A stretch of 64,000 nt of DNA from an uncultured delta proteobacterium (GCA_963704865.1 CAVPIE010000014.1:69937-133936); one strand, 5' to 3'. Counted from the first letter of the stretch, positions 1,416 through 12,617 are shown. A program made the numbers and translations. The notes: a model not told the origin generated them from the sequence alone.

Positions 1416-2342
1416 TCAGGCCGGCACCGGCGCCATGCCGGGGCCTGCGGAGATCGTTCGGTGGAGGATCGCAGGCGGGGCGATGCGGTGCTGCTCGAAC
1501 GCACGCATGACCCTGAGGTTCACGTCGGTCTCGAACGCCTTTTCGTATTGCGTATCGAGCACATAAGCCTTGAGCTGGAGCCGCACCGCGACGTAGTTGT
1601 CTTGGATGACCTGGTTGACGAGCACGACGACGGGTTTGGGAAGATGGACATAGCGGCTGGTCAGCCCGGCCTCGGTCACGATGTCACGCGCCTTGCTGAT
1701 GTCTTGGTCGAGCCCAATGTAGAAGTCCATGACGACCTGCATGTCGAGGGCGCCGTAGTTTCCGCATGACGTCATGTCGGTCAGGAACTTGTTGTTGGGG
1801 ATCGTCACGGTGTTGTCGCTCAACGTCTGTAGCCGTACCGATCGAAGCCCGATCGCGGTGATGTCTCCGTACTCTCCACCAAACGCGACCCGGTCCCCGA
1901 CCTGGAACGGCTGGTCGATCATGATCATGATGCCTGCGATGAACGAAGCGACGAGATCCCGAACGGCGAAGCCCACGGCGACGGCCGCGGTGCCACCCAG
2001 CAAGGTGAGGACCTTGGCATCGAAGTGAACACTCAGCGCGATGACCGTGCCGATGGTTCCGATGTAGACGAAGAACTGGACGATCGTGCCGAGCTTCTGG
2101 AAGAGCATTCGACGCGTCGTGAACTGGTTTCCCAGGTTTTCGATGAAGTTGTTGAAAAAACGAAGGCTAATCCAGACCCCGATGATGATGAAGACGGACG
2201 TGAGGACTCCGCCCCAGCGAATGGCTTCGCTGATTTGCGACATCACTTCATCTTCGCTCGGCTCCTGCGCGGCAGCCAGCGCCGGACCGAGCCACTGTCC
2301 GAGGATCGCGGCGGATAGAACGATTGCTTTGTATACTTTCAT
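1416..2342 (-). CDS. small-conductance mechanosensitive channel (MscS family)
   Basis: ORF 1416..2483 trimmed to the ATG at 2342 (MKVYKAIVLSAAILG.. signal-like N-terminus). MscS core motifs present (GGTAAVAVGFAVRDLVASFIAGIMIMIDQPFQVGDRV). GAGGTG Shine-Dalgarno lies 10 nt upstream. Confidence 0.85.
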   Translation of the reverse strand: MKVYKAIVLSAAILGQWLGPALAAAQEPSEDEVMSQISEAIRWGGVLTSVFIIIGVWISLRFFNNFIENLGNQFTTRRMLFQKLGTIVQFFVYIGTIGTVIALSVHFDAKVLTLLGGTAAVAVGFAVRDLVASFIAGIMIMIDQPFQVGDRVAFGGEYGDITAIGLRSVRLQTLSDNTVTIPNNKFLTDMTSCGNYGALDMQVVMDFYIGLDQDISKARDIVTEAGLTSRYVHLPKPVVVLVNQVIQDNYVAVRLQLKAYVLDTQYEKAFETDVNLRVMRAFEQHRIAPPAILHRTISAGPGMAPVPA

Positions 2343-2352
2343 GCCGAACACC

Positions 2353-5300
2353 TCAGAGCAGCAACAGATGCTTTCTGCGAAGGATACTGATGATCGCGCG
2401 ATACCACTGAAGGTCGATCTCGAAAAGATGACCGTGCCCCTCGATGTAGCCGTGGACGCGTGCGGCACGCAGGGCGTCTGCAACTTCAGCCGCGCTCAGG
2501 TCTGTGCAGGTCACCACATCCTCCTCGACCGCCAGCTCCAACTGTACGACTGTGCGTAAGACGAAGTAGAAGGTCGCGGGCAAATCGTCGAGCTGACCCG
2601 CGGACGGCCCCGAGAAGAGCCGGACGTGCACCGTCTCATCGTCGGGCCGCCGATACAGAGACTCCCTCCAAAAGTGGAGCGCCACCTCTGGATTGCCGTC
2701 TGAGTAGTCCCAGAGAATGCGATAGAAGTCGCGCTTCGTGCGCTCTTCGTCGGAAACGGGGGAGGTCCGCACCTGGCGCGGAACCACCAAGCGTTCGAAG
2801 CTAGGCACGACCCCCGCGGCCGCGCTGCGCTGCTCGATCAGCGACGCGATTTGATTTTCTTCCCAAGCTTGCAGCTTGATGACTTGGTCGAACGCGGCGC
2901 GGTCTCCGCGGGCCCGCCGAAGGTACTGCCAGGCAGGCATCCCAATGGCGATCAGCCACGAGGTCTGCGGGCTGACGCGGCGCGTGAGCTCAATGAGTTG
3001 GTCGATGGCTTCCAAGCCGCCGATGAGCGGCCGAACGAGCCTCTGCGCGTCGTCGACCTGGATCACATTGGGAGCGCGCTCACGCAAGGTCCCGGTGATC
3101 TCTTCTTCGGTTGCCGTCTCCGGGAGCCCAAGGGCGCGTGCAAACTCGACCAAGAGCGCGGCGAAGCCCCCCGGTTTGCATTGCACCGCATAGAGGCTGC
3201 CCGGTTCGAGGTCATTGGTGACGCGATTGAGAAAGGTGGTTTTCCCGAGCCCGCGTTCTCCAACCACCGCGACAATGGCATGACGTTCGGACCGAACGAG
3301 CGCGCGCATCGCATGAACGCTTTCTGACATGTACGACGTCAGAAGCTCGGGGGGAGTCTGAGGATGAGGTGCCAAGGCCTCGTAGACCTCGGTGGGAATT
3401 GGCTCGGTGCCGTACTCCGCGGGCGTGGCTGTCTTGCTTTTCTCGACGCCGCGTCGAAACAAGTAGGCGAAAACCCGACGGAGCGGCGCGAGGTCGCTCA
3501 CGCGGCGAACGACAAAGCCAGCGACTCCTTCGATCAGAAGATAAACGCCGCCGATCGCTGCAGCGGGGTAGGTCAGCAGCCCATGGTCGTGCCGCACGAC
3601 CCACTGCAATACGCGAGACGTCTCGCGGCCTTTCGCGCGCTCGAAGATCGTGTCCTTCCACCAATAAACCAAAACCAGGAACACTGGGATTGCGAGAAAG
3701 CCAAACGTACTGATGACCCAAGCGTAGATGGCGCCCTTGCCGACGGTGGCGACGGTCAACGACAGAATCAAGCCGACCGCGACGACGCTTACGCCGACCA
3801 AGCGCAGCGAGCGAAAGCGTAGCTTGGCGGACGACTCGCTCGAGAAACCCTGACGGCTGGCCGTCGCGTCGATCAGCTCGACGACGAAGGCACCTGCCAA
3901 GAGCCAGACAATGGTGATCTCGACGTACTTCGTCTCGGGTAGTCGGCCCCCTTTTGCGACCAACATCGTCAACACGGCAAAAAAGGCCAGCCACTCGAGT
4001 GGCTTTCGGATTCGACGCACGTACCAAACGAAAGTCGAAACTCCTCGGGTCAGATGCGTCTGAGGCCGTTTTTGGAGCCAAGACCGTCGCGATTGCTCGA
4101 GCGTATCGTCGGCCCGCTTTCGCCACCAGCGAAAGACGAGCACCAGCAGCAAGAGCTGAAATAGGCCGAAGACCACCGGCCGGGGTGAGGATTGGAGCTG
4201 CCGATACCGGCGAGCCGCTTCCCGCGGCACGACGAGCAAGTGGAAGCGGACCTCGAGAATGATCTGGTCGAGCTCGCGTTTGACCTGTGCGACGCCGTCT
4301 GGGCCGAACCCCTCGAGACTGTCACGCCGAGACTCGCTGAGCATCTCGAAGAGACGAAGTCGAGCGTGATTCATGATGACGATCGCATCACGAAGCGATT
4401 TCGCGCGATCCCATCTGAGCTCAGCCTCGAGGGCCTGAAGCGCAATCGCGGAACCGCGGAGTGAGGTTCGGAGCTCGCGTGTAGCGCCGCCGTCGATGTC
4501 GGCAGGAAGCTGGTCGGCATCCGCGTTGGGAAGCGGAGGGACTCCACTCGGATCGGATGTCACGGCATCGAGCGCGACGCGCAGATCGTGGCGCGCGTCG
4601 CCGAGATCCCTGGTGAGCCCCTGGTAGAGGTCATCGGCTTGATTTGCTCTTGCCTTTCCCGACGGCATCGCGCTTTGCAACTCTCGAACTCTTCGGTTCC
4701 ATGCGAGCGCGGACTCGGTCGTTGTCTCGATCTTTGCCCGACTGCTTGCAAGCTCCGCTTTGAACCGGGCTTGAGCCTCCTTCACGCTCAAAAGATGAGC
4801 ACGCCGGTCCGCGACCACTCGAAGTGACTCGGTCGTGGCCTCCTGGGAGTCGACGAGCGCTACTTCACGTTCCAAAGCAGCGTCCTTGGCCGCCTGCTCG
4901 GCGACACTTATCTGCTCGGCCAGCGCTTTGGAGGGTTCACCGCTGCGTTGCGCATGCTTGGACAGCAGGCGCTCACGCTCGGCGTCGTCGAGCTCGAGAA
5001 ATTGAAGCCAGAGCATATCGCGCCGTTGCTTCGCAGCGTTTAGTTGCCCGTCGACATCGTCCTCAGCGGCGGCTGGAATCGGCCTCCTCGAGTCCGGGTC
5101 TAAAAACCGTCGGCGCCGTTCAGGGTCTGCCGCAAGGTCAGCCAGCTCGTCTGGATCGATTTCGAGAAGCGGCCGAGGATCGATCGAAGGGTCCAAGTCC
5201 CCCGCAAGAAACGCTTTCAACTCCCCGATTTGCCCCTCGAGCCGGGCGAGCATCTCGGCCTTTCCCTCGGCCGAGATGGCTTGCGCCTCGGCCTCCCGGC

Positions 5301-5787
5301 GTCGGGCCTCGTGCCTGGCAAGAACCGCTGCGCGCTCCGAAAGCGGGAGAGAGAGAAACGCCGCCTGTGCTTCAACCAGCTCGCGACGCACCTTCCCCAA
5401 GGCGTCCTCGGAGCCTGGCGTGCGCGGCGCTCGCTTGCGGCCGGATGGACGCGCTGCTTGCTTGGTGTCTTGCTCGAGCTCTCGTAGAAGCAGCTCGAGA
5501 TCTGGATTGGCCTTTGGAGCGCCGAGGTCGACCATGAAGAGCGTCTGCGGGTCGACCGCTATATCCAAGCGCCCAACCATGAGTTGTCGGATCTGCTTCG
5601 TCTGGTCCCGTAGCTCCCGGATACTTGGAGCCTTGGCGTCCTGGACTTCGAGCGAAACAGTCGGGACCCCAGCATCCCCGCCCACCCCCTTTGCAGCAGG
5701 TGCTTGGGCGTCGGCAGAGGAGGCCCAGCAGCAACCGACCAGCGTCAGCATGAGCCACAGACGATCGCTGGAATTGGTCATCGGCAT
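2353..5787 (-). CDS. giant envelope protein: signal/lipobox, about 500 aa coiled coil, about 6 TM helices, C-terminal P-loop NTPase (ExeA/AAA_22-like)
   Basis: ORF 2353..5886 trimmed to MPMTNSSDRLWLMLTLVGCC (ATG 5787). Long E/R/A/L-rich heptad region. Hydrophobic helices such as FGLFQLLLLVLVFRWW and AWVISTFGFLAIPVFLVLVYWW. Walker A VVGERGLGKTTF, Walker B VIQVDDAQ, then WLIAIGMPAWQYL..LQAWEENQIASLIEQR as in ExeA-type ATPases. Confidence 0.8.
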   Translation of the reverse strand: MPMTNSSDRLWLMLTLVGCCWASSADAQAPAAKGVGGDAGVPTVSLEVQDAKAPSIRELRDQTKQIRQLMVGRLDIAVDPQTLFMVDLGAPKANPDLELLLRELEQDTKQAARPSGRKRAPRTPGSEDALGKVRRELVEAQAAFLSLPLSERAAVLARHEARRREAEAQAISAEGKAEMLARLEGQIGELKAFLAGDLDPSIDPRPLLEIDPDELADLAADPERRRRFLDPDSRRPIPAAAEDDVDGQLNAAKQRRDMLWLQFLELDDAERERLLSKHAQRSGEPSKALAEQISVAEQAAKDAALEREVALVDSQEATTESLRVVADRRAHLLSVKEAQARFKAELASSRAKIETTTESALAWNRRVRELQSAMPSGKARANQADDLYQGLTRDLGDARHDLRVALDAVTSDPSGVPPLPNADADQLPADIDGGATRELRTSLRGSAIALQALEAELRWDRAKSLRDAIVIMNHARLRLFEMLSESRRDSLEGFGPDGVAQVKRELDQIILEVRFHLLVVPREAARRYRQLQSSPRPVVFGLFQLLLLVLVFRWWRKRADDTLEQSRRSWLQKRPQTHLTRGVSTFVWYVRRIRKPLEWLAFFAVLTMLVAKGGRLPETKYVEITIVWLLAGAFVVELIDATASRQGFSSESSAKLRFRSLRLVGVSVVAVGLILSLTVATVGKGAIYAWVISTFGFLAIPVFLVLVYWWKDTIFERAKGRETSRVLQWVVRHDHGLLTYPAAAIGGVYLLIEGVAGFVVRRVSDLAPLRRVFAYLFRRGVEKSKTATPAEYGTEPIPTEVYEALAPHPQTPPELLTSYMSESVHAMRALVRSERHAIVAVVGERGLGKTTFLNRVTNDLEPGSLYAVQCKPGGFAALLVEFARALGLPETATEEEITGTLRERAPNVIQVDDAQRLVRPLIGGLEAIDQLIELTRRVSPQTSWLIAIGMPAWQYLRRARGDRAAFDQVIKLQAWEENQIASLIEQRSAAAGVVPSFERLVVPRQVRTSPVSDEERTKRDFYRILWDYSDGNPEVALHFWRESLYRRPDDETVHVRLFSGPSAGQLDDLPATFYFVLRTVVQLELAVEEDVVTCTDLSAAEVADALRAARVHGYIEGHGHLFEIDLQWYRAIISILRRKHLLLL

Positions 5788-5879: not shown

Positions 5880-7100
5880 ATGGCAAAGATGGCGACGTCA
5901 GATGACCCCGCGGAACGCAAGGAGACCCCCATCGCCAAGAAGGTACATCGAAAGCGAAAGCGCACCGCTTTGCGCAGGCGGCGACCCCAGACGCTCGGCT
6001 TGGCGCCGGGGAGCATCACCGCCGTCCCGGGCGCGCCGCCTGCCGTCATTCGCGCCATCTCCTACGACGCAGATCGGGTCGAGGAGCGCCCGATTGAGCA
6101 CGTTTCCGATCTGAAATCGCTTCACGACAGGCGCACAAGCGTCAGTTGGATCAACATCGATGGCCTCGGCGACCCTGACACCTTGTCTCAGCTCGGCGAG
6201 ATGTTTGGCCTTCATGCGCTCGCGTTGGAAGACGTGGTGAACCTCCATCAAAGGCCCAAGTTCGAGGACTACGGCGACATCGATTTCATCGTGCTTCGCA
6301 TGCCGTCGCTGGGCCCACACCTCGATCTCGAGCAAGTGAGCATGTTCGTTAGCGATCGCTTCGTGATCACCATTCAAGAGCGGCCGGGTGATTGCTTCGA
6401 CGCCCTCCGCGACCGAATCAGGAATGGGAAGGGGAGAATCCGCCAACGCGGGGGAGCCTACCTCGCCTATGCTGTGCTCGATGCGATCGTCGAGACCTTC
6501 TACCCGGTCGTAGAGAGCTATTCCGACCGGCTGGAAGAAATTGAAAGCAGACTGCTGGCAAACCAGACCGAGAATGTCGTCGCCGAGATTCACGCCGTTC
6601 GTCATGATTTGCGTGCCCTGCGTCGCGCGGTCGCCCCAACCCGAGAGGTCCTGGCCTCCATGGCCCGGGCAGACGCCAGCGATCCCCAAGGCGATACGCA
6701 CATCTTCCTCCGAGACTGTCACGATCACACCGTCCAGCTGATGGAGGCTCTCGACACGAACCGAGAGCTCGCCTCGAGCCTCATGGACATGCATCTGTCC
6801 AACGTGAGCATGCGAATGAACGAGGTCATGAAGGTCTTGACCATCATCGCGACGATCTTCATGCCGCTTGGCTTCATCGCGGGGCTTTATGGAATGAACT
6901 TCGATGGTGACCTTTCACGCTGGAACATGCCGGAGCTCCGATGGCGCTACGGCTATCTCTTCGCCCTCGGCGCGATGGGGCTCACCGCGATCGGGCTCGT
7001 GTTGTTTTTTCGTTCCAAGGGCTGGCTTGGTGACGACGGTCATGAAGCCAACCATGGGGCTGAGCCGGAACAAGATCCCCCCGCGGCTGGCGGGAGGTAG
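5880..7100 (+). CDS. corA: magnesium/cobalt transporter CorA
   Basis: C-terminal two-TM region with the canonical GMN motif (FIAGLYGMNFDG). CorA-like cytoplasmic domain. Basic N-terminal extension; the start could also be the ATG at 5889. Confidence 0.9.
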   Translation: MAKMATSDDPAERKETPIAKKVHRKRKRTALRRRRPQTLGLAPGSITAVPGAPPAVIRAISYDADRVEERPIEHVSDLKSLHDRRTSVSWINIDGLGDPDTLSQLGEMFGLHALALEDVVNLHQRPKFEDYGDIDFIVLRMPSLGPHLDLEQVSMFVSDRFVITIQERPGDCFDALRDRIRNGKGRIRQRGGAYLAYAVLDAIVETFYPVVESYSDRLEEIESRLLANQTENVVAEIHAVRHDLRALRRAVAPTREVLASMARADASDPQGDTHIFLRDCHDHTVQLMEALDTNRELASSLMDMHLSNVSMRMNEVMKVLTIIATIFMPLGFIAGLYGMNFDGDLSRWNMPELRWRYGYLFALGAMGLTAIGLVLFFRSKGWLGDDGHEANHGAEPEQDPPAAGGR

Positions 7101-7126: not shown

Positions 7127-7561
7127 TCAGTCGGCGTCCGTTAGACCCAGGGCCGTGGAGATCTCTCGCAAGGTGGTTTCCTCGGCGGCCCGTACCCGAC
7201 CGTCCGCAGCGACAGCGATGGCTGCCGCGCCTCGGACCAGCTCGCTTTTGACCTCGTCGCCGGCCACGCGAGCGATGCAATCGAGGGCGCGTTGGCGGCC
7301 GTCGTCAGGGTTTGCGATCAAGGAGTCGCTCAGGTCCCGAAAGGTGCTTTCGAGCGCCTCGAAGTCCAGACCGGAAAATACATCTGTCTTACCCCGGAGC
7401 ATCTCGACGAACCCGTCGACCTCGGACCTCGCGAGCTCGCCGTCCGAAGCAGCCACCAATGCAAACGCTCCGGAAAGGGCACTCAGCAGAACATCCGGGA
7501 CCTCCTCGTTGAAACGAACCCAACTCGCGATGGCGTACGCCAGAGTCTCGTCTGCAACCAT
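7127..7561 (-). CDS. TerB-family (tellurite-resistance TerB-like) protein
   Basis: ORF 7127..7843 trimmed to MVADETL (ATG 7561). Two TerB-like repeats: LVAASDGELARSEVDGFVEML and AVAADGRVRAAEETTLREIS. Confidence 0.6.
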   Translation of the reverse strand: MVADETLAYAIASWVRFNEEVPDVLLSALSGAFALVAASDGELARSEVDGFVEMLRGKTDVFSGLDFEALESTFRDLSDSLIANPDDGRQRALDCIARVAGDEVKSELVRGAAAIAVAADGRVRAAEETTLREISTALGLTDAD

Positions 7562-7730
7562 TGATGCCTCCTCGGCTGAAGAGAGATTAGCGTGACCTGC
7601 TGGAGAATGCGAGGCATCTTGGACTCGCCCAGCAGGTTGCTGAGCGCAGTGACGTTCAGGGTCTGATTGGTTTTTGGTGACGGACGAGAAACCGGGGGCG
7701 CTCCAAGCGCTCGTTTGAATTGGAGGGCAC

Positions 7731-8618
7731 ATGAGTTTGAAGCAGATCATCGAAAATCTGAGCTCGCTACTGAGTACCGAGCTTTTTGAGATCGGGGGCA
7801 GGCATGTCAAATTGGGCACGCTGCTAGTCGCGGGCTTGGTCATCGGACTGACTTTCGGGATCTCCTCTCTGGCTCAGCGCGGGGTCCGGCGCGGAATGAC
7901 CCGGCGAGGTGTCGTCGACGAGGGTGTCATCGACGTCACCAACAAGCTCCTGCACTACGTGGCCCTGTTCGTCGGGTTCGGCATTGCCCTTCGCCTGGTT
8001 GGCTTCGACCTGAGCACCTTGTTTGCCGCAGGCGCCATCTTCGCGGTCGGTATCGGCTTTGCCATGCAGAACATCGCCCAGAACTTCGTTTCGGGCATCA
8101 TTCTTCTAGTGGAACGGGCGATTACGCCGGGGGATGTGCTCGAGGTCGACGGTCGGATCGTCCGGGTACTGCGCCTGGGAATCCGCGCGACCATCGCCAG
8201 ATCCCGGGACGGAGAAGACGTGATCGTGCCGAACTCGATGCTCGTGCAATCCCTGGTCAGGAACTTCACACTCGACGATGCTGCCTATCGAGTCCGTACT
8301 GAGGTTGGGGTGACCTATGGCTCCGATATGCGGCTCGTTCGCGAGACCCTCGAAGGAGTTGCGAAGCGCAACAGCACAGGCGTCCCCCGATACGAACCAC
8401 AGGTACTCATGCTGCGCTTCGGCAACAGCTCGGTGGACTTCGAGGTCGCGATCTGGATGGACGATCCCTGGCTCGCCCGCCGTCGGCTGTCCCAGCTCAA
8501 CGAGGAGATCTGGTTGGCGCTGAAGCGAGAAGGCGTCGTCATCGCGTTCCCACAGCTCGATGTGCACTTCGATGCCCCCGTCGAAGGGGGCCTAAGTCGG
8601 CTCGCAGCGGCTTCCTGA
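7731..8618 (+). CDS. mechanosensitive ion channel (MscS family)
   Basis: Three TM helices followed by an MscS beta-domain (FAVGIGFAMQNIAQNFVSGIILLVERAITPGDVLEVDG). Confidence 0.85.
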   Translation: MSLKQIIENLSSLLSTELFEIGGRHVKLGTLLVAGLVIGLTFGISSLAQRGVRRGMTRRGVVDEGVIDVTNKLLHYVALFVGFGIALRLVGFDLSTLFAAGAIFAVGIGFAMQNIAQNFVSGIILLVERAITPGDVLEVDGRIVRVLRLGIRATIARSRDGEDVIVPNSMLVQSLVRNFTLDDAAYRVRTEVGVTYGSDMRLVRETLEGVAKRNSTGVPRYEPQVLMLRFGNSSVDFEVAIWMDDPWLARRRLSQLNEEIWLALKREGVVIAFPQLDVHFDAPVEGGLSRLAAAS

Positions 8619-8685: not shown

Positions 8686-10776
8686 CTATTGGTCGAATCT
8701 GCGAAGCTGGTCGTCGAAGCTCCGGACGCCTTCCTTGGCTTTTGCAAGTTCGATGAAGCGTGGAAGTTCTCCGGAGTTGGCGCTCTGCTGCTCGAGCGTT
8801 GCGAGGTCGACGGGGGCGTTGGATTCGTATGCGCGAAGGGCATCCAAGACCGTTCGGAGCTCGGGAGGCAGTGCGGCAAGGTCGTTGGGCGTTTCACCAA
8901 ACCCGAGGGCATATCGGGCCAGCCGCGTTTTGGCGTCACTTGGGAGACTCGTCCGCGAAAGCGTTTCGCGCAGCGTTTCGAGCACGGCGCCTAGCTTGCC
9001 GGCGTCCGCGACGGATGGGTCCTGAGCCAACTCGCGCAGCGACTGCGCGATACGCCCCTGCGCCGCGACCAATCGGAGCCGAAGGTTCTCGGACAGGGGG
9101 TGCAGCGAAATGGAGCCAATGGCCTGGTCCTGCAGGATCTGCATGGCGGCGTCGATGTTGCCGAGGCGCGCTTCTACAGTGGCGCACGGAAGGGCATATT
9201 GAAAGTCGTCATTTAGAAAGTCGCCGGATTCCTGCGGTGTGAGCTGCATCAGCCAGGGCGGGCTTCCGCGATACGCGAACGCACCATCGCGGGCCATCTG
9301 AGCATACGCGCTCTGCAGTGCGAGCAAGGTGCTTTGTTCATCCGGGCTCGTCCGAAACGCAAGGGCCCAGGCGAGATCTTTGGTAGCCCGCAGCTGATCG
9401 TCGCGTACACAGCTGCGGGCCGCCAGCGCTTGCGCTTGCTCGAGGTACTCGAATCCGCTTTTTTGGAGGCCGGCGCGGGTTCGCGCAGTGCCAACGGCAT
9501 GCAGGGCGAACGGGTTGTCCGGGTTCCGCGTCACCTCGTATTCCCAAAGCGAAGACGACGAGGCGAAGACTCGCGAATGAAGTGACGTCACGACTGCAAA
9601 ACCCAAGACCACCACAGAAGCAACGATAGCGACCGTCTTCCCGAGCGTTGCGCGCTTCCGGAACATCATCAGGAGCCCGCGAGCGAAAAGCGACGCGACC
9701 CCGAGCATCGGAAGGTAGAGAAAACGGTCCGCCGTGAGATTTCGGCTGCCGAGGTCGATCAGGTTCGCCACCGGCAGCAGCGGAACGACCACCCATAGTG
9801 CGTCGGCGAACACCGGGCGCCATGCATGCCTGCGGTACGCGACGACGCCAAGCAGGATCACCACAGCGAGGACTACGGTCCCCCCGATCCACCACGCGGC
9901 CGGCAGGACCTCGCCGCCCTCGCATTCGTAGAGACGCATTCCAGGGAAGGCAGTCGGATTCCAAGGCGAGAAGATCTGCTGCGCGTACAAACCAAACGAC
10001 GCCAGAGCCCTCGGTAGCGCGCCGCGGGTCGGCCCGCTTGGAAGCGCGACGTCGATGATCCAAACGCGGGCGAGCAGCGCGACGACCACCGGCGCGATGA
10101 GTGCGATCGATGCCGAGCGCTCGCGACGTCCCTGCAGCAAGAATCGATCGGCCAAGAGCAAGGGTGCCCCGACGATCGCCGATTCCTTTGCGAACAGCGC
10201 CAGGGCGAGCAGAATCCCGGCGAGCCAACTGCGGCGCGAGTCAAACGCGAGGGCGGCCAAGAGGACCAGCGCGCACATCCAGAGCTCGGTGCTTCCCGAT
10301 ATCCACGAAACCGCCTCGGCGCGGCTTGGATGAAGCGCGAAGACGGCGGCGCCGAGGCCGACGGCAAGCAAGCGATGGGCCTCTTCGCCGGGCGGGATGC
10401 GTCGTCGCAGCCAGAAAAACGCGAGGACGCAGCAAAGTAAGTGAAGCGCCAGACTGACCGCACGGTACCCGGCGGCGTGCAGACCGAACAGGCGGAACTG
10501 AGCGATGTACGCGAACGTGACGATCGGCCTGTAGAGGTGATTGTAGGTCTCGTTGGCTTGCGCGGCGTCGCTCGAAACGTTCCAGAAGTGACTGGTCAGA
10601 GCTTCGCCATAGCGCTCGGGACTCTGAATGTTCTCGTTCGTACGGATCAGGCCGTTGTCATCCCAGGTGAACTCATCGCTGAGCCCCGGGATGAAAACCA
10701 AAACCGTGAGAAGAGCGAGAAGGATCGACGCAGCGCCCCACCAACGTTCCAAAGCCACCAGGCCATCGTATCTCAT
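8686..10776 (-). CDS. TMTC/PMT_2-like polytopic membrane glycosyltransferase-like protein with C-terminal TPR repeats
   Basis: N-terminal FTWDDNGLIRTNENIQSP motif, about 10 TM helices, C-terminal TPR-like helical repeats. Confidence 0.75.
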   Translation of the reverse strand: MRYDGLVALERWWGAASILLALLTVLVFIPGLSDEFTWDDNGLIRTNENIQSPERYGEALTSHFWNVSSDAAQANETYNHLYRPIVTFAYIAQFRLFGLHAAGYRAVSLALHLLCCVLAFFWLRRRIPPGEEAHRLLAVGLGAAVFALHPSRAEAVSWISGSTELWMCALVLLAALAFDSRRSWLAGILLALALFAKESAIVGAPLLLADRFLLQGRRERSASIALIAPVVVALLARVWIIDVALPSGPTRGALPRALASFGLYAQQIFSPWNPTAFPGMRLYECEGGEVLPAAWWIGGTVVLAVVILLGVVAYRRHAWRPVFADALWVVVPLLPVANLIDLGSRNLTADRFLYLPMLGVASLFARGLLMMFRKRATLGKTVAIVASVVVLGFAVVTSLHSRVFASSSSLWEYEVTRNPDNPFALHAVGTARTRAGLQKSGFEYLEQAQALAARSCVRDDQLRATKDLAWALAFRTSPDEQSTLLALQSAYAQMARDGAFAYRGSPPWLMQLTPQESGDFLNDDFQYALPCATVEARLGNIDAAMQILQDQAIGSISLHPLSENLRLRLVAAQGRIAQSLRELAQDPSVADAGKLGAVLETLRETLSRTSLPSDAKTRLARYALGFGETPNDLAALPPELRTVLDALRAYESNAPVDLATLEQQSANSGELPRFIELAKAKEGVRSFDDQLRRFDQ

Positions 10777-10877
10777 CGTCCAGATTGGCTAAGAAAAACT
10801 CGGTGGCTTCTCGCGCTAGCAGCGCCCCTGCGGCCTCGCCGTGTGCTTTGGGGAGTCTGTGCTACAAAAGCCGCTTC

Positions 10878-12617
10878 ATGTCTGAGTTACTTTCCCTAGA
10901 GCAGGCCCCCGCGGGCCTCGGCGCCGCCTTGCGCAACGCCGGTTTTGAGAGCTTCACCGCCATCCAGCAGGCCATTTTGGACCCCGGGTTGAAGGGTCGC
11001 GATTTGCGAATTTCCTCCCAAACGGGATCCGGAAAAACGGTGGCCCTGGGGCTGCTCCTGGCGCCCTCCGTCGCGATCGCCGCTGCCACGGCCAAGCCGA
11101 AGAAGTCCCGCAAGTCCATTGCGGCCGCCCCGGTGACTCTGCTCGTCGCCCCGACTCGCGAGCTCGCCGGCCAGCTCGGGCGTGAGCTTCGCTGGCTCTA
11201 CGAACCGCTCGGGGCCCGTGTCCTCGTGGTGACCGGTGGCACCAGCGTGATGCAGGAGCGATATCAGCTGTCCACCCTTCCCCAGGTCGTCATTGGCACT
11301 CCTGGTCGTCTTCTCGATCATCTGAAGGCCGGCGCCCTGAAGCTCGATCAGCTCAAGACCATCGCGCTCGACGAAGCCGATGAGATGCTCGATATGAACT
11401 TCGAGGAGGAGCTCGACGGCATCCTCGGCTTCGCGCCCGAGGCCCGTCGCACCCACCTGGTGTCGGCGACGTTTCCACGCGAAGTGGTGAGACTCGCGGA
11501 CCGGCTCCAGCAAGACGCCGTCTCGGTACAAGGTACGGCGCTCGGCAAGGCGAACGCCGACATCGAGCACCTCGTGATGCACGTCCGCCAAGCTGATCGA
11601 TTCCATGCGGCGATCAACGTCTTGCTCCGCTACCCGGATGACAAGACCCTTCTCTTCGTGCGAACCCGAACGGAAACGGTTCGACTTGCCGATGAGCTTT
11701 GCGCGGCCGGCCTCGCGGCGCGTGCGCTCAATGGCGAAATGACCCAGCGCGAGCGAACCGCGACATTCACTCAGTTTCGAAACGGCGCCGTTCGTTACCT
11801 CGTCGCCACAGACGTCGCGGCGCGCGGCCTCGACGTGCAAGACATCGGCCGGGTGATTCAAGTCGACCTCCCCGACAACGCCGACGTATTCACCCACCGG
11901 AGCGGACGCACCGGGCGAGCCGGACGGCGCGGCACCAACGTGCTGTTTGCGGCCGCGCACGCCGAGCGCCGAGTCCAGAGCACGCTGCGGGCCGCGCGCG
12001 TGGATGCGCGTCTGGTCCCCATTCCGACACCAGAGGAGATTTTCGCGGCCGCCGACGAGCGGACTGGTGAAAGCTTTCTTCGCGACCTCGCGAATCAGTC
12101 CAATGAGCCGGACGGCCGGGCGAAGGATCTAGCCGAACGCCTGCTCGCCGAGCATTCGCCCGCGGAGCTCGTGGCCTGCCTCCTGAAACGAGAAACGGAG
12201 CGCAGCCAAGGAACCCCAAAGCGCGTCCGAGACGATGCCAAGCCCGCACGCCACGAGCGCAGCCCTCGCAAGGTGGGTCCGAAGGGGCAATCGCGGCAGC
12301 GACCACAAGGCGATTTCATCACCTATCAAGTCAGCTGGGGCGGACAGGCGGGCGCTGACACGAGAAAGCTCCTAGCGATGGTCTGCCGGCGAGGCGACGT
12401 GTCGAGCGAAGTCGTGGGCGCGATTCGGGTCTCCCCGAAGAGCTCGACCGTAGACATCTCGGCCAGCGAGGCGCAGCGTTTCGAGCGAGCGGTGGCCCGG
12501 CCGGACAAGCGAAACCCTCGCGCGCAATTCCGGCGATGGGATCCACGCGCCAAGGTGAAACCAAGCGCGAAAGCGAAGCGCCCGCAGCAGAGTAGCAGCA
12601 GCGCCCGTTGCGCCTGA
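10878..12617 (+). CDS. DEAD-box ATP-dependent RNA helicase with DbpA-type C-terminal RNA-binding domain
   Basis: ORF trimmed to MSELLSLEQ (ATG 10878). Motifs SQTGSGKT, PTRELA, DEAD (LDEADEML), SAT, HRSGRTGRAG. C-terminal DbpA-like segment and basic tail. Confidence 0.9.
   Translation: MSELLSLEQAPAGLGAALRNAGFESFTAIQQAILDPGLKGRDLRISSQTGSGKTVALGLLLAPSVAIAAATAKPKKSRKSIAAAPVTLLVAPTRELAGQLGRELRWLYEPLGARVLVVTGGTSVMQERYQLSTLPQVVIGTPGRLLDHLKAGALKLDQLKTIALDEADEMLDMNFEEELDGILGFAPEARRTHLVSATFPREVVRLADRLQQDAVSVQGTALGKANADIEHLVMHVRQADRFHAAINVLLRYPDDKTLLFVRTRTETVRLADELCAAGLAARALNGEMTQRERTATFTQFRNGAVRYLVATDVAARGLDVQDIGRVIQVDLPDNADVFTHRSGRTGRAGRRGTNVLFAAAHAERRVQSTLRAARVDARLVPIPTPEEIFAAADERTGESFLRDLANQSNEPDGRAKDLAERLLAEHSPAELVACLLKRETERSQGTPKRVRDDAKPARHERSPRKVGPKGQSRQRPQGDFITYQVSWGGQAGADTRKLLAMVCRRGDVSSEVVGAIRVSPKSSTVDISASEAQRFERAVARPDKRNPRAQFRRWDPRAKVKPSAKAKRPQQSSSSARCA

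Follow-up and report, generated by a model that had tools for sequence, protein, structure and literature searches.

In the current view, MscS-family mechanosensitive channels sense tension as self-contained units, and their known elaborations (MscK, MscM, YbiO, YnaI and bCNG) are fusions within a single polypeptide. MscK carries eight extra transmembrane (TM) helices for a total of 11; its gating depends on the external ionic milieu, and it serves as a model for a periplasmic sensor. The bCNG proteins are MscS-family channels with a cyclic-nucleotide-binding domain. To our knowledge, none of the known MscS elaborations uses ATP. Here, we describe a gene pair from an uncultured delta proteobacterium, located on a 64,000-nucleotide stretch of DNA (GCA_963704865.1 CAVPIE010000014.1:69937-133936; henceforth the window, with positions counted from its first letter). 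The upstream gene encodes a large protein with a signal peptide, a periplasmic helical repeat domain, a TM domain and a Cdc6/Orc1-like AAA+ module with a winged helix; the downstream gene encodes a small, dedicated MscS-type channel. The strongest conclusion of the analysis is that the gene pair is an obligate, co-inherited module, which raises the possibility of an MscS-type pore regulated by a separate ATPase subunit.

Both genes lie on the minus strand of the window. The large-protein gene (2353..5787) is defined by its open reading frame (ORF) and by a 100%-identical database protein, and encodes 1144 amino acids (aa) when counted from the ATG at 5787. Upstream of this ATG the ORF stays open to a TTG at 5886 and a longer start is possible; the identical database protein (P0001) has 1142 aa and starts two codons later. 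The MscS-family gene (1416..2342) encodes 308 aa. The junction between the two (2343..2358) reads CTC-TGA-GGTG-TTCGGC-ATG: the TGA stop of the large gene (2353-2355) is overlapped by a GAGGTG element, which ends 6 nt ahead of the MscS ATG at 2342, and 10 nt separate stop from start. This overlap is a translational-coupling signature. An earlier interpretation of the same stretch (the sequence-only reading) had described the stop as embedded in a GAGGTG Shine-Dalgarno element 10 nt ahead of the channel start, and these coordinates were verified. A promoter and terminator scan detected neither a sigma-70-like promoter nor a terminator-like site at the junction. The terminator-like matches of the scan fall inside coding sequence or upstream of coding sequence, and the seven matches in coding regions are not meaningfully higher than the shuffle expectation of 3.8 +/- 2.0. 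The two genes are probably co-translated.

The linkage of the two genes extends far beyond the window. Relatives of the pair were examined by tblastn in 39 loci, comprising five encoding contigs (L001-L003 among them represent one gene in three copies) and 34 loci from GTDB genomes; the genome scan that supplied the latter used two peptide patterns that reach Myxococcota only, and its 34 loci are not a census. The partner MscS gene lies directly downstream on the same strand in 38 of the 39 loci (35 of 36 distinct loci), and likewise in three of three gammaproteobacterial loci, including that of Solimonas terrae, which brings the total to 41 of 42 distinct loci. Every full-length family member that was examined has the partner MscS downstream, and the sole exception is a single locus (L038) to which we return below. 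In a reciprocal test, metagenome loci were found from the partner MscS and the best 80 were kept (39-92% identity). The C-terminus of the large protein is encoded directly upstream of the MscS gene in 63 of the 63 loci with at least 300 nt of upstream sequence; the remaining 17 of the 80 contigs are too short upstream to judge. In 34 of the 39 related loci the distance from stop to start falls between -4 and +15 nt, and the identities of the large protein and of the MscS protein to the window pair co-vary (Spearman rho 0.93).

Two-way synteny, coupling spacing and identity co-variation, all directly observed, thus make the pair an obligate module, and coincidental co-transcription is ruled out by the reciprocal synteny. 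The sequence-only reading had presented the large gene as coupled to a small MscS channel, a claim that holds in both directions, and it had named synteny in relatives as a check beforehand; the pair proved to be syntenic. The two proteins are encoded by separate ORFs in all loci and very probably work together as one unit. ORF clustering over 38 loci found no third conserved gene; only the two families recur, and the other recurring clusters are either alternative-frame ORFs within the GC-rich large gene or neighbours of close relatives only. The flanking genes are wholly different between lineages.

The family of the large protein is sizeable. A word-indexed search retrieved 20 relatives, and a repeat with a diverse alignment gave the same 20. 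An exhaustive profile search against 1.84 billion cluster representatives, with clusters defined at 50% identity, returned 2786 clusters at E<=1e-3 and 1071 at E<=1e-30. The best 150 profile matches all cover long stretches and are mostly about 1000-1400 aa in length; 13 of these 150 are shorter (589-939 aa) and apparently truncated. In the source databases, family members are named only 'AAA family ATPase', 'Cdc6-like AAA superfamily ATPase' or 'hypothetical protein'. Carriers among the Myxococcota include Polyangiales, Sandaracinaceae, Kofleriaceae, Bradymonadales, Microvenator and Archangium; gammaproteobacterial carriers are the cultured Solimonas terrae and S. marina, together with Perlucidibaca and Paraperlucidibaca metagenome-assembled genomes (MAGs). 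One MAG, CAVOVB01, holds two copies of the pair on separate contigs (L006 and L039), whose identities to the window protein are 88% and about 70-81% and which reflect either a true paralogous duplication or a mixed bin.

The C-terminal part of the large protein has the hallmarks of an ATPase. Its AAA+ alpha/beta base (2872..3297, aa 831-972) contains the Walker A motif GERGLGKTT (3235-3261), the Walker B motif VIQVDD (3049-3066) and a candidate arginine-finger segment, RARGDR (2899-2916). The Pfam AAA_22 model (PF13401) matches aa 835-951 with an E-value of 6.6e-11 and 43.1 bits (cutoff 27), and it matched six of six diverse family members. The Walker motifs and the AAA_22-like character of the C-terminus, both proposed in the sequence-only reading, were therefore located, and the domain scores above the AAA_22 threshold, the outcome opposite to the failure as a P-loop NTPase that had been listed as a possible objection. 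Residue conservation, counted directly over 154 full-length family members, is high in both nucleotide-binding motifs: in Walker A, G846 and G848 are present in all 154 and K849 in 150, and in Walker B, D912 is present in 152 and D913 in 132. As the Walker A and B motifs are near-invariant, the ATPase appears to be under purifying selection. R958 (142/154) and R960 (144/154) both lie on the helix that follows strand beta-4; their location suggests that they occupy the AAA+ arginine-finger position and are candidate fingers. Active sites between subunits, and hence oligomerization, would follow from this placement.

The base is followed by a lid (2614..2871, aa 973-1058) and by a winged-helix-like domain (2356..2613, aa 1059-1144) with a DSSP pattern of H-H-H-E-E-H. 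The lid carries an invariant D-Y-S-x-G-N-P motif, within which the G-N-P portion is essentially without exception (G1031 154/154, N1032 153/154), and aligns in Foldseek to 1fnn and 2qby; the winged-helix-like domain aligns to full-length Cdc6/Orc1. For the AlphaFold2 (AF2) model of the whole AAA+ region (pLDDT about 80), the best Foldseek matches are 1fnn_A (E 3.7e-8) and 2qby_A/B (E 3e-7 to 8e-7) over roughly 400 aligned columns, and these Cdc6/Orc1 matches have a TM-score (target) of 0.45 and an identity of 12-17%. The next matches after the archaeal Cdc6/Orc1 proteins are eukaryotic ORC/Cdc6, TnsC, MuB and RuvB, which are oligomerizing AAA+ switches or motors. Motif conservation and models alike identify the C-terminus as a true P-loop AAA+ ATPase belonging to the AAA_22 or ORC/Cdc6 type. 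Further Pfam models stay below threshold: the ORC-CDC6-like model PF24389 (E 0.29), KAP_NTPase (E 0.27, over the P-loop only) and AAA, PF00004 (E 0.24). Few stretches of the family are as well conserved as the extreme C-terminal tail (2356-2400, aa 1128-1144), W-Y-R-A-x-x-x-x-L-x-R-[KRQ]-H-L-L, in which W1128, R1138 and L1141 are kept in at least 90% of the 154 members; the tail might dock onto the channel or the membrane.

The combination of base, lid and winged helix is shared with the archaeal Orc1/Cdc6 proteins and with other initiator-type AAA+ proteins such as ORC, TnsC, MuB, ExeA/GspA and TniB. The Walker B context of the large protein, hhhhDDAQxL, also resembles the DEAQ motif that we take to be characteristic of ExeA/TniB-type AAA_22 proteins. 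The differences are equally clear. Unlike Orc1/Cdc6, the large protein is anchored in the membrane behind five TM helices and a periplasmic domain, its identity to these proteins is only 12-17%, a sensor-2 arginine is not conserved in its family, and the pair has no replication or transposition context. Given the low identity of the fold match, the sub-threshold PF24389 score (E 0.29) and the membrane anchor, the large protein is not filed as an Orc1/Cdc6 replication initiator. ExeA is a cytoplasmic ATPase followed by one TM helix and a periplasmic peptidoglycan-binding domain, whereas the order is reversed in the large protein. The bCNG channels offer a likeness of another kind, in that they link the activity of an MscS core to a module that binds nucleotides; in bCNG, however, this part is played by a small cNMP-binding domain at the C-terminus of the channel, fused to it, rather than by a separate and far larger AAA+ subunit.

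The downstream partner has the build of an MscS-type channel. The 308-aa protein comprises an N-terminal signal-like segment, three TM helices including a pore helix that begins GGTAAVAVGFA, a beta domain and a C-terminal domain. Pfam MS_channel_2nd (PF00924) matches with an E-value of 1.5e-17 and 63.9 bits against a cutoff of 20.2, and MS_channel_3rd (PF21082) reaches 21.0 bits, exactly at its cutoff; the Pfam scan did not detect PF21088, which covers the TM1-2 region. The NCBIfam MscS equivalog models remain far under cutoff (59 bits against 500), and by these profile scores the protein is a divergent MscS subfamily. Orthologs of the partner are 45-92% identical with long invariant stretches, the value of 45% being that between Myxococcota and Gammaproteobacteria, and identity to the second MscS of the window (7731-8618) is only 16%. 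Partners from the two phyla share the Gly/Ala-rich TM3 motif GGTxAVxxGFA without variation, and the beta domain is fully conserved; the protein presumably forms a heptameric pore. Partners from Myxococcota start with a signal-peptide-like segment (...ALAAA|QEP) that is absent from the gammaproteobacterial orthologs. At two Bradymonadales loci (L019:7366-9167 and L022:7405-9241) the large gene is followed by two tandem MscS genes of the partner type, 60-68% identical to that of the window, an arrangement that suggests heteromeric channels or subfunctionalization.

The N-terminal half of the large protein appears to be exported. It starts with a predicted Sec signal peptide (5707..5787, aa 1-27; predicted cleavage ADA|Q), and an N-terminal hydrophobic h-region is found in 122 of the 142 family members with enough N-terminal sequence. 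The segment LMLTLVGCC had been read as a signal or lipobox-like start, of which the signal part stands and the lipobox part does not. LVGC fits a lipobox in the window protein, yet orthologs show LVLC, MAWC or MAWS at this position (...MAWSSTAPASA|Q at locus L001), and the bacterial lipoprotein reading was rejected as the +1 Cys is replaced. The A-x-A|Q signal peptidase I site is kept in the orthologs and the Cys is not, which argues for an ordinary Sec signal peptide.

Downstream of the predicted cleavage site follows a periplasmic domain (4180..5706, aa 28-536) dominated by A, L, R, E and D. It is all-helical in AF2 models, with a pLDDT of 79.5 and a pTM of 0.58 for the model of aa 40-790; confidence in the structure models is moderate. 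Neither Pfam nor NCBIfam has a model that matches aa 28-536. The sequence-only reading had seen about 500 aa of E/R/A/L-rich heptad sequence here. The helical, A/L/R/E/D-rich character was borne out, but a plain heptad coiled coil was not, since the region contains a tandem repeat of about 110 aa: unit 1 (5281..5613, aa 59-169), with the motifs GxLDxxVDPxxLFxxDL and FLxLPxxxRxxLLxxH, and unit 2 (4924..5241, aa 183-288) align to each other with an hhalign probability of 98.6% and an E-value of 1.3e-15. A loose regular expression for FLxLPxxxRxxLLxxH gives zero to four matches per family member, a noisy measure with one of three matches in the window protein spurious, and many members align to the family profile from about position 230 onward only; together these observations point to a repeat number that varies across the family. 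By these searches, the periplasmic repeat domain appears to be new.

Between the periplasmic domain and the ATPase lies a membrane domain (3505..4179, aa 537-761), delineated by hydropathy, the family-wide charge pattern and AF2 helices; outside the ATPase it is the best-conserved portion of the protein. Hydropathy predicts five TM helices (TM1 537-555, TM2 597-612, TM3 622-641, TM4 660-681 and TM5 686-709), and TM2/TM3 and TM4/TM5 are tight hairpins with outer loops of nine and four residues. About six TM helices had been proposed from the sequence alone. Five of them are clearly hydrophobic, while the sixth (aa 741-761) is weakly so, with a family mean hydropathy of 1.0 against 1.5-1.8 for the TM helices; it has K/R-rich segments on either side and probably does not span the membrane. 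K/R-rich loops occur family-wide at aa 556-596, 642-659, 710-740 and 762-790, and the net charge is +7, +3, +3 and +3 in these four proposed cytoplasmic loops and about 0 in the short outer loops. This positive-inside pattern suggests a topology of N-out, five spans and C-in, which would place the ATPase in the cytoplasm. A cytoplasmic linker (3298..3504), which contains a basic amphipathic helix (LRRVFAYLFRRGVEK) as well as a segment of low confidence, joins the membrane domain to the AAA+ base; its R778 is kept in at least 90% of the family.

The best hypothesis is that the two proteins would form a nucleotide-regulated mechanosensitive channel complex. We give a probability of about 0.5 to a two-subunit channel complex in which the large protein is a dedicated accessory sensor or regulator of an MscS-type pore. 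Contact between the subunits, topology, the direction of signalling and the effect of ATP on gating are what we infer, starting from the observed domain anatomy. The MscS-family protein would provide the presumably heptameric pore, and the exported N-terminal helical repeat arm would read an envelope or ionic cue in the periplasm. The five TM helices, arranged as one single helix and two tight hairpins, may pack against the peripheral helices of the channel; in MscK, the extra TM helices surround the MscS core. The Cdc6/Orc1-like AAA+ module with its winged helix would be a nucleotide-dependent oligomerization switch that sets the gating threshold, the open or closed state or the assembly state of the channel. 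The predicted topology fits a transducer from periplasm to cytoplasm. Genes for ion homeostasis are frequent neighbours of the pair (in the window, CorA and a second MscS, two MgtE genes and an MscS at L001, a TrkA-type K+ channel and two MscS genes at L043), and this loose association fits a channel with a sensor or regulator.

A more elaborate form of this complex is conceivable and should be regarded as tentative. The MscS heptamer would be ringed by accessory subunits, with an AAA+ ring or spiral beside or beneath the cytoplasmic cage, and ATP binding or hydrolysis together with the periplasmic cue would decide whether tension opens the pore. If true, such a supercomplex would be the first AAA+-controlled bacterial ion channel and would mean that the MscK-type sensor architecture had been invented twice, independently. 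The partnership itself, if true, would bring an input of energy or nucleotide state to the control of osmotic and ionic safety valves, and it would define a new membrane AAA+ family and a new periplasmic repeat domain. The pair is directly testable, as it consists of two genes only and has cultured carriers in Solimonas terrae and S. marina.

Several observations weigh against the regulated-channel model, and the first of these concern its likeness to MscK and MscM. Read together, the two proteins of the pair resemble MscK/MscM in layout: a signal peptide, a helical periplasmic domain of about 500 aa, a multi-helix membrane domain and an MscS core. Here, however, the sensor module forms a polypeptide of its own and, unlike MscK and MscM, bears a Cdc6-like AAA+ ATPase on the cytoplasmic side; its TM helices number about five, against the eight extra helices of MscK. 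BLASTP and hhalign comparisons of 14- and 154-sequence family profiles found no homology to Escherichia coli MscK or MscM (probability <=0.3%). When the window protein and 12 diverse family members were scanned with the MscS_porin (PF12795) and MscS_TM (PF12794) models, neither model gave a match at a limit as lenient as E<=10; as positive controls, MscS_porin detected MscK at E 4.6e-61 and MscM at E 6.8e-49, and MscS_TM detected them at E 2.3e-100 and E 1.1e-113. In Foldseek, the model of aa 40-790 has MscK (7uw5_A) as its best PDB match with a probability of 0.91, all others being at or below 0.33, but the match is not significant (E 0.064, TM-score 0.18, root-mean-square deviation 19 A). 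'Split MscK' as a statement of homology was consequently rejected for want of a detectable sequence relation and holds as an analogy only. Of the split MscK-like architecture put forward in the sequence-only reading, the analogy of layout and the weak fold match survive and the homology does not; the resemblance is architectural, with a weak hint of fold similarity, and does not amount to family membership.

The remaining objections concern the ATPase and the partnership. ExeA/ORC-type proteins carry a sensor-2 arginine just past the GNP motif, but in this family the residue that follows GNP is variable and the expected arginine is not conserved; in addition, the second acidic Walker B residue is missing in 22 of the 154 members. 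As neither residue is universal, some members of the family may hydrolyse ATP slowly or not at all. The good structural relatives of the ATPase module are all DNA-binding AAA+ proteins, and the winged helix could therefore mean a nucleic-acid-related role of which the channel model makes no use. A fusion of the large protein with MscS is absent among about 215 retrieved family proteins. The exceptional locus L038 encodes a truncated relative (L038:3765-6155) that matches aa 65-779 only, is split over two ORFs and has neither the ATPase module nor a downstream MscS. A histidine kinase and an M23 peptidase are encoded next to it, and it may be either a copy in decay or a paralog that lacks the ATPase. 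Finally, the stoichiometry of the complex and its contact site are pure inference.

The DNA-binding relatives bear most directly on a reversal of the signalling direction, which strikes us as unlikely. The MscS-like protein would then be the tension sensor and the large protein the output, leading to envelope remodelling or to a change in gene expression; the AAA+/winged-helix module might bind DNA or another cytoplasmic target, or an ATP-driven movement of the periplasmic arm might occur by analogy with MacB/FtsEX or ExeA/GspA. ORC/Cdc6-type AAA+ proteins with a winged helix normally bind DNA, the variable number of periplasmic repeats is what would be expected of an envelope-spanning arm, and ExeA/GspA provides a precedent for an AAA_22 ATPase coupled across the inner membrane to a periplasmic domain. 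On the other side, Pfam scans of the large protein, including 12 diverse members, detected no peptidoglycan-binding or other periplasmic effector domain, and there is no conserved third gene as a possible target. The fully conserved beta domain and TM3 Gly/Ala pattern of the partner are also what a functional channel, as opposed to a mere sensor, would be expected to show.

It is also improbable, to a similar degree, that the pair is a conflict or abortive-infection module, in which a membrane AAA+ protein would sense an invader (for instance DNA entering the cell or a phage protein at the envelope), oligomerize and force the MscS pore open, with loss of solutes or ions and arrest of the cell. 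This analogy draws on the nearest folds, which are DNA-binding AAA+ proteins, and on weak Pfam similarity to the P-loops of NACHT, NB-ARC and nSTAND. Membrane P-loop NTPases that alter ion flux are known as defence effectors, including PifA of the KAP family and Tmn of the YobI family, the latter of which exports Mg2+ and causes plasmolysis (bioRxiv 10.64898/2026.03.01.708804). The likeness to both lies in a P-loop NTPase at the membrane that is tied to ion or solute flux; the differences lie in the NTPase clade, in TM helices that are upstream of the ATPase rather than inserted in it, and in the housekeeping genomic context of the pair, which is without a PADLOC match. The distribution over Myxococcota and scattered Gammaproteobacteria could reflect horizontal transfer, and one MAG has two copies of the pair (L006, L039). 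However, the identities grade from close Polyangiales to remoter Myxococcota in a way that looks like vertical descent, although this is an identity series and not a species tree. The GC content and the GC content at third codon positions (GC3) of both genes match those of the flanking genes, and the CorA neighbour is common to eight closely related loci, which points to a stable chromosomal position. None of the annotated neighbours was recognized as a defence gene, housekeeping or ion-transport genes being found instead. A search of PADLOC-DB v2 gave no significant match, the best E-values of the large protein being 0.035 and 0.061 (over the P-loop only) and MscS having none. Intracellular sensing would also leave the large exported periplasmic domain unexplained. 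A role of the large protein as a dedicated assembly, insertion or quality-control factor for the partner MscS is very improbable: tight coupling and synteny would fit, and many AAA+ proteins are chaperone-like, but the AAA_22/ORC clade is not the unfoldase clade (PF00004 is at noise level, E 0.24), a 500-aa periplasmic domain and a conserved five-TM domain would be unnecessary, and other MscS paralogs of the same genomes need no such factor.

The whole large protein has no match among PDB sequences, and the C-terminal profile has weak P-loop matches only, with a best E-value of 0.0023. NCBIfam returned only sub-threshold P-loop matches for the large protein, and literature searches over the full text of 8 million papers found none on a pair of MscS and an AAA_22/Cdc6-like protein. 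The earlier statement that the combination is not recognizable as a described one thus agrees with Pfam, NCBIfam, PADLOC, the PDB sequences and the literature searched, and a match of the N-terminal region to a known unrelated family, which had been named as a possible refutation, was not found. The parts are of known kinds, an MscS channel and an AAA_22/Cdc6-like ATPase; the membrane-anchored ATPase family and its obligate coupling to a channel appear to be new.

In the window, a CorA Mg2+ channel gene (5880-7100, plus strand) lies directly upstream of the pair and is divergent from it. It is followed by a TerB-domain ORF (7127-7843, minus strand) and by the second, canonical-looking MscS gene (7731-8618, plus strand). 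The TerB ORF as listed overlaps the 5′ end of this MscS gene by about 110 nt, and its Pfam match is limited to aa 125-238; the true start is therefore probably an internal codon. Elsewhere the pair has different company: on a gammaproteobacterial contig (L043:8125-11947) it is followed by a TrkA-N-type K+ channel gene and two further MscS genes, and on a Myxococcota contig (L001:10271-13249) by two MgtE-type genes and another MscS-like gene. Farther along the window, and judged by translation only, lie a gene for a multi-span membrane protein of 696 aa with a helical-repeat C-terminus (8686-10776, minus strand) and a DEAD-box-type helicase ORF (10785-12617, plus strand).

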